Part shown: piece after piece, positions 22 to 1,927 of the stretch
How the letters are laid out: every line of letters begins with the position of its first letter
Numbering within the stretch: position 1 is the first letter of the stretch
Origin: Pseudobdellovibrionaceae bacterium
Lineage (GTDB): Bacteria > Bdellovibrionota > Bdellovibrionia > Bdellovibrionales > Bdellovibrionaceae
Reading direction: 5' to 3'
Length of the DNA: 11,511 nucleotides
Assembly (NCBI GenBank): GCA_044359815.1
Contig: JBIKLL010000082.1
Span: 1-11,511, forward strand
The notes under the pieces: generated by a model
What the model saw: only the letters and a program-made list of their open reading frames with translations
What the model was told of the DNA's origin: nothing
Databases searched by the model: none
Position numbers and translations under genes: made by a program

Positions 22-546
22 ATGTCGCAACTAGATCCTGAAATTTTACGTGATTTTCAAGCTGAGTCCAAGGACCTGGTTGATCAAATGATCGAGATTC
101 TTGAAAAGTGTGAAGGTGATTTTTCTAAGGTCAAAAGTCTGGAGCAGTACGGGTTGTTTGTGGATCGAATTATGGGCGGTGCTAAATCGCTGGCTATGTC
201 TATCAGTGATAAAAATCATATCATCCACCAAATTGGGGATTATTGTGCGATTTGTAAGGCTGTGGGATATAAGGCTTCACAAATCAAAGACAACGAACAT
301 TTTTATGATGTGGTTGTGGCGTTATTGTTAGATGCATCAGAAATGCTGCCAAAAATGCTGGACCTGGTAGGATCTAATCAAAACCTTAACACAGTTTTAT
401 CAAAAACTTTTGTTGAAAGGGTTAAATGGGTGAGCGAAAAATTTGGTGCTGAATACCGCTCCTCTGTCGAGGTCAACAAAAACGCCCCCAAGAAAATGGA
501 TCAAGGCGACATCGACGACCTGCTGAAAAAGTTAGGATTGGATTAG
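22..546 (+). CDS. Hpt/CheA-P1-like helical protein lacking the canonical His, with CheZ/FliM-like C-terminal peptide
   Basis: N-terminus LDPEILRDFQAESKDLVDQMIEIL resembles CheA P1 helix A (F-x-x-E-x-x-[DE]-L). VDRIMGGA sits where HxxKG is expected. Ends MDQGDIDDLLKKLGLD. Confidence 0.7.
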   Translation: MSQLDPEILRDFQAESKDLVDQMIEILEKCEGDFSKVKSLEQYGLFVDRIMGGAKSLAMSISDKNHIIHQIGDYCAICKAVGYKASQIKDNEHFYDVVVALLLDASEMLPKMLDLVGSNQNLNTVLSKTFVERVKWVSEKFGAEYRSSVEVNKNAPKKMDQGDIDDLLKKLGLD

Positions 547-632
547 GTTTTCGGATTGTCGAAAATATGCATGGATTGATTATCGAATTATCTATGACTT
601 GTTGAAAAAATTAGACTTAGATTGATATTGCC

Positions 633-1253
633 TCAGCAGGAAATCAGAATTTTACCAAGGTCAACTGATCGGGCTCGCTTTGATTTGAGTCGGTACAAAA
701 ACTGGTTAAAAGATTTCAGATATTCTGTTCTGGCAGCATAACCAAGTTCACGCTGACGATGATTGGCTTCGAAATAGGCTTTCAATCCCAGCTCTTCAAA
801 TTTAGTTGTGATAATCCTAGTAAAAGCCAATCCATCCCAAAATCTGCCAAAGGATTTGGATCTGTGCGCCCCTGTGATTTTACGAGCCAAAATAGCTGTG
901 AAAGTTCTAAGGAAATTTTGAAAATTCTGACGGTTTTTAAATCGCACCTTAAGATGCAAATGATTCCCCATATTGACCCATTGAATGATTTCGACAAAAT
1001 ATTTTCTAGATCTATCCTTTAGCAGTTCGGCAGTCAGTGTTTTGTTTTTATAAAAGCTCAATGACCCGATGGCTTTACTGGATTTTAAAACAACGTGATG
1101 AATAGCACCAGGAATTAAGGGTCTGGCAATTTTTCTGCGCTTTTTTAATCTGCTGCCCCCAAAGCTCATGGCTTTGACAAAGCGCAAATCCTGCTGGGGA
1201 ATCAGAGATAGTTGTTGATTATTTTTATGATTTTTTAAATTCATACGGGGCAA
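633..1253 (-). mobile_element. HUH Y1 tyrosine transposase (IS200/IS605 TnpA or REP-associated RAYT-like)
   Basis: N-terminal HHVVLKS strand, HUH motif MGNHLHL (951-965), FW..., and a candidate catalytic Tyr helix LKAYFEAN (Tyr codon 774-776). No tnpB nearby. Start is TTG 1253 or ATG 1244. Confidence 0.8.
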
Positions 1254-1462
1254 TATATTAGTGGCTGTTTAAGTTATCAAAATAATTATGAAAACATGAA
1301 ATTATTTTAATTTATATTTGTCTGTCGGCGTGGCTGAGCACAGAATTTTTTGATCTGTTTGTATGGAATCGTTGTTGTTGAATCAACTAAGCATGGGGTC
1401 TGTTATTATGTTTAAAAACTGATTCAGTTTAAGTGTCTGAGGTTATGATAAAGTTTGTATTG

Positions 1463-1606
1463 TGATCAATTTGTGCGGTGATCAGTCCATACAATGGTCA
1501 ATTTTTGCAGTGATCAGTCCATACAATGGTTAATTTTTGCGGTGATCAGTCCATACAATGGTTAATTTTTGCGGTGATCAGTCCATACAATCATCAATTT
1601 GTGCGA
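1463..1606. repeat. Tandem repeat, 32-bp period, about 4.5 copies (consensus TGRTYAATTTKTGCGGTGATCAGTCCATACAA)
   Basis: Invariant GTGATCAGTCCATACAAT starts at 1478, 1510, 1542 and 1574. ATCAATTTGTGCG occurs at both ends (1465-1477, 1593-1605). No unique spacers. Confidence 0.97.
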
Positions 1607-1823
1607 AGCCAGGCAGTGTATTTATGGGTTTGTTTAGCCATTAATATACCGCCCCTATTTCATGTTTTTATAAGATAAAAATTAAGATTTATATTCCTGA
1701 TACAAATAAGTTAATGCCTTACTTTCTCTTCAGATTTAAATTTTATTCCAGGCATTGTTTAAGTTATTTTAGTTTAACTTAAATTGGAGGCTATTAAAAA
1801 TGATCACTATATAAACGGGCGAC

Positions 1824-1900
1824 TACACAATCAGATCGTAATACGTAGCTACGACGGGTACGCAAACAGATCGCAATACGTTTTGGTAGCTAGGATGAGT
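1824..1900. repeat. Degenerate direct repeat, 35-bp period
   Basis: TACACAATCAGATCGTAATACGT (1824-1846) vs TACGCAAACAGATCGCAATACGT (1859-1881), 20/23 identical. GTAGCTACGACGGGT (1845-1859) vs GTAGCTAGGATGAGT (1886-1900), 12/15. Confidence 0.75.
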
Positions 1901-1927
1901 CGGTAATTGCAATCTAAAACAGAGTAT

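Follow-up and report, generated by a model that had tools for sequence, protein, structure and literature searches.

The window, as the whole stretch of 11,511 nucleotides analysed here is called, holds a predicted Y1 HUH nuclease/transposase gene and, upstream of it, a tandem array of 32-bp units, both lying between two convergent genes, one for a conserved 174-aa protein and the other queG (Table 1). In 17 of 29 loci of relatives these two flanking genes abut tail to tail, so that the segment between them in the window is an insertion; in the other 12 loci queG either lies 0.3–1.3 kb away (four loci, in one of which, L202, a distant member of the HUH family sits between the genes) or is absent from the 1.5 kb examined (eight loci). 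The comparison of empty and filled sites suggested in the first-pass annotation of this DNA thus yielded an empty site in most of the relatives' loci. No tnpB accompanies the HUH gene, as had also been stated, its neighbours being the 174-aa gene and queG. The 174-aa gene (22–546, forward strand) has no match in Pfam or NCBIfam. Of 182 genomes of the family, 141 contain it, and it is usually arranged tail to tail with queG. Inside the insertion, at 1786–1815 on the forward strand, a strong ribosome-binding site and an ATG are followed by a stop after four codons. This may be what is left of a small gene, though nothing matching it was found elsewhere.

Table 1. Features of the inserted segment and its HUH gene, in window coordinates.
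Feature	Position	Strand	Remarks
Whole lineage-specific insertion	547..1927	.	between the convergent 174-aa gene and queG
Motif-like ATTGATATTGCCTC	621..634	+	inverted, overlaps the stop codon; at 1 of 8 copies; may be chance
Y1 HUH nuclease/transposase gene (predicted)	633..1244	-	203 aa from ATG 1244; NHLH, FWD and YFEANH motifs
Family motif ATATATTGCCCC	1247..1258	-	core ATATTGCCCC at 1247-1256; non-palindromic, overlaps the -10 box
Sigma-70-type promoter TTGATA-17-TATATT (predicted)	1252..1280	-	10/12 matches, best of 8 sites
AT-rich stretch	1281..1311	-	common to the eight paralogs to about -58; no shared DNA further out
Tandem array, 32 bp x 4.4	1466..1605	.	unique to the locus; 13-nt direct repeat ATCAATTTGTGCG at its bounds; read as a local duplication product
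Degenerate motif copy TAAATACACTGCCTG	1610..1624	-	gene strand; 5 nt from the array edge; 9.4-9.7 bits; tentative
Inverted degenerate motif TTAATATACCGCCCC, then 16/17 inverted copy of 1286-1302	1641..1673	+	

The reading frame of the HUH gene is open over 633–1253 on the reverse strand. Its start is likely the ATG at 1244 and not the TTG at 1253, because the TTG falls within the predicted -10 box and because the database gene call is also of 203 aa; the length of 206 aa first given for the protein should probably be shortened to this value. The predicted promoter stops 7 nt ahead of the ATG, a leaderless transcript is predicted, and the exact pattern TTGATA-17-TATATT occurs five times in the genome, each time ahead of a family gene. 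In the protein the NHLH motif (H95/H97), W136 and Y157 are invariant among 50 aligned homologs, and the AlphaFold model (pLDDT 81.8) has the predicted fold of a Y1 HUH enzyme. Profile scores stay below the curated cut-offs: 22.5 bits against 23 for Pfam Y1_Tnp, 22.9 against 80 for the NCBIfam profile REP_Tyr_transpos, whose best E-value among 50 family members is 1.6e-5, and 19.6 against 55 for transpos_IS200. Foldseek searches with the model returned the TnpA proteins of IS608 and ISDra2 with the best E-values and TnpA_REP (4ER8) with the top TM-score (0.52, rmsd 3.0 Å); Y157 is in register with the tyrosine of the YIESQH motif of ISDra2 TnpA. Full-length family matches measure 185–228 aa with an HUH-to-Y spacing of 60 aa, and the tyrosine motif never contains NP, its form being Y-x-x-[AG]-N in almost every sequence whose locus bears the DNA motif described below. 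The earlier description of an intact Y1 HUH transposase is therefore upheld by the open frame, the invariant residues and the predicted fold, and the proposal of a RAYT-like system without palindromic REPs fits what appears to be a divergent RAYT-like Y1 enzyme.

The gene stands alone at this locus, as the first reading had it, but not in its genome (G000), which harbours eight close family copies (85–91% protein identity) and two distant ones (36–40%). All eight close copies are intact, with 78–86% DNA identity, dS of 0.8–2.9 and dN/dS of 0.02–0.06; the DNA that they share runs only from about -58 to the stop codon, and their flanks hold no shared repeats. The window gene is thus among eight copies, all of them old and intact, that represent in this genome a Y1 HUH family of the predatory Bdellovibrionales under purifying selection. 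Persistence at one site is illustrated by the copy on contig C56 and its ortholog L031 (dN/dS 0.10; dS 0.23, vs 0.27 for the neighbour gene) and is found in close relatives also (L054/L057, L052/L058 and L059/L070). In the pair L054/L057, whose members share their genomic site, identity is 83% for the HUH gene and 90–92% for the flanks, which suggests replacement or conversion by a paralog. Family relatives were found in 25 of 41 genomes sampled, close relatives (E up to 1e-50) in 15 of 182 genomes of the family with one to eight copies each, and 792 representatives at E up to 1e-10; the titles of 80 family loci are mostly Bdellovibrionales, and a search of plasmids and viral contigs found no relative. 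In a quick tree of 98 rows the copies cluster by genome, and 67 of the 68 rows that bear the motif described below fall, together with six others, on one branch with support of 97.

The 32-bp array was confirmed as a feature of 4.4 copies with 92% matches and a TRF score of 231, its inner copies being nearly identical. Public lake-metagenome contigs enter it with no differing letters (X1, X3 and X4 from both sides, X2 from one side); every such contig from the four runs breaks inside the array and none spans it, so the copy number is without independent confirmation. The first-pass annotation had viewed the array as a possible substrate or product of the enzyme, or as a noncoding RNA. That the unit is the specific substrate of the window enzyme, or a noncoding RNA unit, now appears very improbable. 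Its position beside the gene and within the same insertion, and the near identity of the inner copies, would agree with such a role. On the other hand, the genome-wide search that had been proposed for the unit found no copy outside the array: the four matches to its 18-nt core at up to one mismatch in 2.95 Mb all lie within the array, and the best match beyond it has two mismatches in 18 and unrelated flanks. The paralogs, at 85–91% identity, stand beside units unrelated to this one, a comparison that by itself disfavours the unit as substrate, and the DNA flanking the array matches nothing in the family loci compared. The sole hairpin of the unit is the 4-bp one already named at the outset, array and unit fold like shuffled sequences (z +0.39 and +0.74), and no Rfam family comes near its gathering score for either. 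Being unique in the genome and folding no better than shuffles, the unit is not a REP-like substrate, and a dispersed REP was rejected because no copy exists elsewhere in the genome. A structured RNA was likewise rejected (no Rfam match near the gathering score, fold z about +0.5), as was a CRISPR array, since the units run head to tail and are 92% alike over their whole length with no constant-repeat/unique-spacer layout. What may survive of the original proposal is the array as a product of the enzyme.

The candidate for a non-palindromic site is, from the sequence comparisons, the motif ATATTGCCCC by the gene start, which had escaped the first reading, and not the 32-bp unit. With up to two mismatches it precedes the start in 72 of 80 loci, among them all eight copies of the window's genome, and no other non-coding stretch of the family is as well conserved; its longer form in the window, ATATATTGCCCC, is a likely binding or nicking anchor of the enzyme. 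It could also be a promoter feature, because in the window's clade it overlaps the -10 box, and in most clades it overlaps either the -10 or the -35 box. Around the loci of the window's own clade (69–72 loci) extra or oriented copies are not enriched; in the window's genome, the 9.2 kb upstream of the eight copies contain five extra matches of at least 9 bits, where 1.15 would be expected; a coding gene holds one of the five. Two others, both degenerate, flank the far edge of the window array (1610–1624 and 1641–1655), the first of them at 9.4–9.7 bits, a score reached about 0.12 times per kb in the genome. The segment 1641–1673, likely a rearranged relic of the promoter region, pairs with 1610–1624 as a weak hairpin (fold z -2.3 and -2.0).

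The motif is most conspicuous in the genome G029, an outlier among 384 genomes, the other 383 having at most six exact copies. There, all 14 core family copies have one to seven direct copies of AATGACAYTGCCC at 50–960 bp upstream, 42 in total with none on the other strand, against a background of 4 in 920 kb, and a separate promoter lies downstream of the last motif copy. Of the 42 exact copies in the whole of G029, 37 are upstream of family genes, one is just downstream and four are elsewhere, with none for the reversed control. In two loci (L225 and L233) duplicated segments of 224 and 142 bp start and end at the motif and are young duplications; most other spacers are mutually unrelated. 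Capture of host DNA in these spacers was considered for two of the 14 upstream regions and rejected, no convincing match being found elsewhere in G029. In G017 the motif lies upstream of all four core copies and of a separate promoter, in either orientation and often with microsatellites, and in G040 one copy has three motifs in a row.

Other branches of the family have motifs of their own. In the clade of the distant paralogs C116 and C123, 11 of 12 loci have TACCTTCGYTCAC on the same strand as the gene, a count that includes the five loci in which it was noticed before being found in six of the other seven. Of the 38 remaining loci, 19 have close to the start a third form, either TTGACATCGCTAC, which is joined to the -35 box, or CCATCGCCCC, with 0.03 expected per stretch searched, the pattern having been drawn from the loci in which it is counted. 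A motif that changes with the protein and moves among -10, -35 and far-upstream positions would be behaving as a cognate binding site. As separate observations, the sister-clade core WACCTTCGCTC is dispersed, with 25 exact copies in G029 and 13 in G040 (2 and 4 for the reversed controls), and four loci of G029 (L230, L244, L247 and L258) have dispersed tandem arrays whose basic unit, TTGTCGTGCCC, is similar to the family motif; a family gene has one cluster of these arrays upstream of it.

Tandem arrays accompany the family genes in the window's genome far above background, in line with the expectation of flanking arrays at homologs. With gene calls taken as crude ORF calls, arrays of TRF score of at least 70 lie within 600 bp upstream of all eight copies and of 25 of 2656 other genes; among controls with an upstream gap of at least 300 bp the count is 9 of 320 (Fisher p 8e-12). 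These figures apply with no filter in either group, and exclusion of arrays inside crude ORFs gives 6/8. Downstream arrays occur at one of the eight copies vs 35 of 2656 other genes. The array units, of 6, 7, 8, 24, 32, 42, 51, 77 and 85 bp, are mutually unrelated, and the arrays lie about 80–430 bp (83–427) from the gene start, outside the conserved promoter. In eight related genomes the trend is weaker: arrays occur at 9 of 36 family genes vs 4 of 150 long-gap controls, and three of the eight genomes have none at 13 copies. Over 80 loci, repeats peak in the 500 bp ahead of the gene (7/78 and 7/75) and at the 3' end (8/75), the remaining bins of this profile being mostly coding. Distant loci with the motif have arrays in 6 of 22 cases vs 6 of 40 for those classed as lacking it, many of which were later shown to have a motif of their own. 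Related genomes and paralogs are, in all these counts, not independent samples.

In one genome, five copies (L074, L076, L077, L081 and L097) still have in common some 350 bp of upstream DNA and as much as 250 bp of downstream DNA. The common stretch breaks off sharply on its 3' side and raggedly on its 5' side, and each copy has internal duplications of its own, a pattern which implies that duplications arise inside the non-coding DNA of the element after copying. A sharp 3' end with a ragged 5' side is what one-ended rolling-circle copying would give. The common flank of these five copies ends sharply at AGAAAGATCCC. At another copy of the window's genome (C48, 47340–48180) the upstream DNA contains a 98-bp inverted copy of the gene's 3' end (93% identical), a second motif, and a direct duplicate of the gene, now decayed, with arrays of 85 and 5 bp occupying its middle.

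The reading preferred here, which we rate at about an even chance, is that of a motif-anchored RAYT-like enzyme whose nicks would seed local duplications, the 32-bp array being a one-off scar of this activity. Its basis in observation is a multi-copy family under purifying selection, a clade-specific motif, unrelated arrays upstream and an empty insertion site; the binding, autorepression, nearby nicking and seeding of duplications are inferred. The protein would bind ATATTGCCCC and thereby also repress its own promoter, autorepression being possible since the motif overlaps a promoter box in most clades. The anchored enzyme would then nick single-stranded DNA at distances of up to a few hundred bases and with loose specificity, as does TnpA_REP of E. 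coli, which cleaves single-stranded DNA at C|T in an anchor-dependent manner more than 400 nt from the anchor (PMC3333891, as described there). Nick-primed synthesis and strand transfer would add a copy of local sequence, in the way of the nick-primed amplification model proposed for BIMEs in the same paper, and slippage would expand the seed duplication, events inside the gene being purged. A duplication with the motif at both ends would yield cassette arrays delimited by it, as in G029; with ends away from the motif, arrays of arbitrary units would arise, as in the window's genome. Transposition of the gene itself would be rare, and each copy would afterwards remain at one site. Several points weigh against this scheme: the 32-bp unit has no motif and the motif copy at the array edge is degenerate; extra motif copies are not enriched in the window's own clade, and G029 is an outlier; distant loci with and without the motif differ little in their arrays; and two pre-existing short direct repeats with slippage alone would also give motif-bounded duplications.

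The main rival, to which we assign a substantial probability well short of even, takes the motif as only an autorepression operator or promoter feature and the arrays as passive slippage minisatellites in unconstrained inserted DNA of a repeat-prone genome. It agrees with the overlap of the motif with promoter boxes, with the wholly lineage-specific nature of 547–1927, with the many microsatellites that this genome has far from family genes, and with the arrays at C48, which occupy a decayed gene duplicate; most copies in other genomes (27 of 36 in the related ones) are moreover free of arrays. The peak at the 3' end and the orphan arrays are left unexplained by a 5' anchor and fit passive slippage. 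Such orphans number 19 (intergenic, score of at least 100, away from the family), and their origin as sites of lost copies was rejected, since only one has a strong motif copy nearby. Passive slippage fits less well the contrast of 8/8 with 9/320 and the upstream bias: long intergenic regions rarely have arrays (9 of 134 of those of at least 500 bp elsewhere, as with the long-gap genes), and the downstream flanks of 288–714 bp at five copies have a single array of score of at least 70. Loss of mismatch repair was rejected as a cause of the repeats, mutS and mutL being present with open frames, which also counts against a passively repeat-prone genome. In G029, finally, copies of the motif as far as 960 bp from the gene have remained intact between diverging spacers.

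The same upstream bias (8/8 vs 1/8 downstream) would be expected if the arrays were selected as length-variable regulatory DNA that tunes or switches the expression of each copy, and the DNA upstream of the C56 copy does differ from that of L031 in the number of 77-bp units and in a segment with a 7-bp array. Such a role is nevertheless improbable, as the arrays lie outside the conserved promoter, have no common unit, period or composition and are absent at most of the relatives' copies. Returning to the motif-anchored enzyme, its extension to the whole group, namely that a domesticated Y1 HUH superfamily of the Bdellovibrionales reads a short, unstructured, clade-specific word in place of a hairpin and writes tandem duplications (motif-delimited cassettes in one lineage, arbitrary mini- and microsatellites in another) next to it, is put forward as a tentative generalization that could well fail.

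Among the closest known systems are the RAYT/TnpA_REP proteins of REPtrons (PMC3333891; class 2 of PMC6006769, as defined there), with which the family shares the Y1 HUH fold bearing the HUH motif, conserved W and catalytic tyrosine, the best TM-score, diverged copies held under purifying selection at one site, and variable repeats beside the gene. The HUH family behaves as a domesticated one, with a copy number above the usual one or two: eight copies here vs subclass means of 1.0–3.9 for RAYTs (PMC6006769, in its Table 1). The signatures described in that paper are Y---Q for class 1 and Y---NP for class 2, whereas the family has Y-x-x-[AG]-N. Unlike REPtrons, it has no GTAG-tagged palindrome, flanking or dispersed; its putative site is an unstructured 10–13-mer at the promoter, undispersed in this clade, its flanks have no common repeats and its arrays are made of unrelated local sequence, the 32-bp unit being unique. 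Tandem clusters of REPs and REPINs are known, and as described they are built of REPs (PMC3116915). In the genome of L101–L107 some copies have common palindromic repeats flanking them on either side, a more REPtron-like layout.

The REP-less TnpA_Y1 subclasses 2.1 and 2.3 of PMC6006769 resemble the family in having several diverged copies per genome and no REP-like hairpins. As described in that paper they are longer (median 238 and 325 aa), with extra domains, Y---NP and other taxa, so that by the published description the family, at 185–228 aa with 60 aa from HUH to Y, falls outside them. Neither a cognate motif nor arrays are described for these subclasses in that paper, whose main text makes no mention of Bdellovibrio. 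TIRYTs and their TIRtrons (PMC3733652, as characterized there) share a RAYT-like gene with short non-REP motifs nearby, and the reverse strand of the family motif also begins with GGGG. Their TIRs, however, bracket the gene in inverted orientation and share GGGGWSAS, whereas the family motif GGGGCAAT is upstream only and mostly direct; inverted flank copies were found at C48 and L072 only, with unrelated sequences, and thus do not amount to terminal repeats of the TIRtron kind. At L072 an inverted repeat of 206 bp (95% identical), in itself a hairpin, stands on both sides of the gene.

With the TnpA of IS200/IS605 elements (IS608 and ISDra2) the family has in common the best Foldseek E-values, the tyrosine in register and the insertion between abutting genes. 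It differs in the absence of tnpB, of conserved subterminal hairpins and of Y---Q, and in copies that are 78–86% identical in DNA vs about 99% for IS200/IS605. No conserved DNA is found past the stop or beyond -58, and the end regions fold like shuffles (z -1.3 to +0.65). The DINE-1/Helentron elements of animals (PMC4067079, as described there) are rolling-circle-mobilised DNA with microsatellites and variable internal or central tandem repeats; they depend on a eukaryotic Rep/helicase and have subterminal inverted repeats, so the likeness is one of analogy only. In sum, the family would work like a REPtron without hairpins and yet fails to belong to RAYT class 2, IS200/IS605 or the TIRYTs. 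A literature search with most subscription journals outside its scope found no paper on this Y1 family.

The characterised Y1 transposases and RAYTs of the literature cited here are described as recognising hairpins. A large family (792 representatives) with a different non-palindromic word in each clade offers enzyme-substrate pairs for tests of hairpin-free recognition, and makes testable both the role of REP-less multi-copy RAYT-like genes and the proposal of the BIME amplification model that HUH nicking creates tandem repeats in vivo. If the generalization to the whole group is true, bacterial tandem repeats would have a source that is driven by an enzyme and anchored to a site, and the group would be one of hairpin-free HUH enzymes with natural variants of specificity. 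If the arrays are passive, a motif-defined transposase clade for which no description was found and an ordinary minisatellite remain.

The window's genome contains other repeat systems. A separate RAYT with a YIYQNP motif (C8, 9768–10106) is flanked by GTAG-led repeats in inverted pairs, and these repeats occur at about 54 sites genome-wide, several with small tandem duplications of their 3' end. REP-type systems are thus detectable in this genome, and the window gene is not the partner of these repeats; a link between the two was rejected, the GTAG REPs flanking the separate RAYT. An abundant family of long-hairpin repeats has about 230 core matches on many contigs. A link of the HUH family to it was rejected, as none lies within 11 kb of a close paralog except for a degenerate half at C56, and a resemblance of the promoter to the hairpin arms was also rejected, having failed in a matrix scan. 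That half makes up the array of 77-bp units ahead of the family gene on C56. Many contig ends of the assembly are microsatellites of 4–8 bp; the starts of contigs C23 and C105, for example, have the same 8-bp microsatellite on opposite strands, and these two contigs are likely adjacent.
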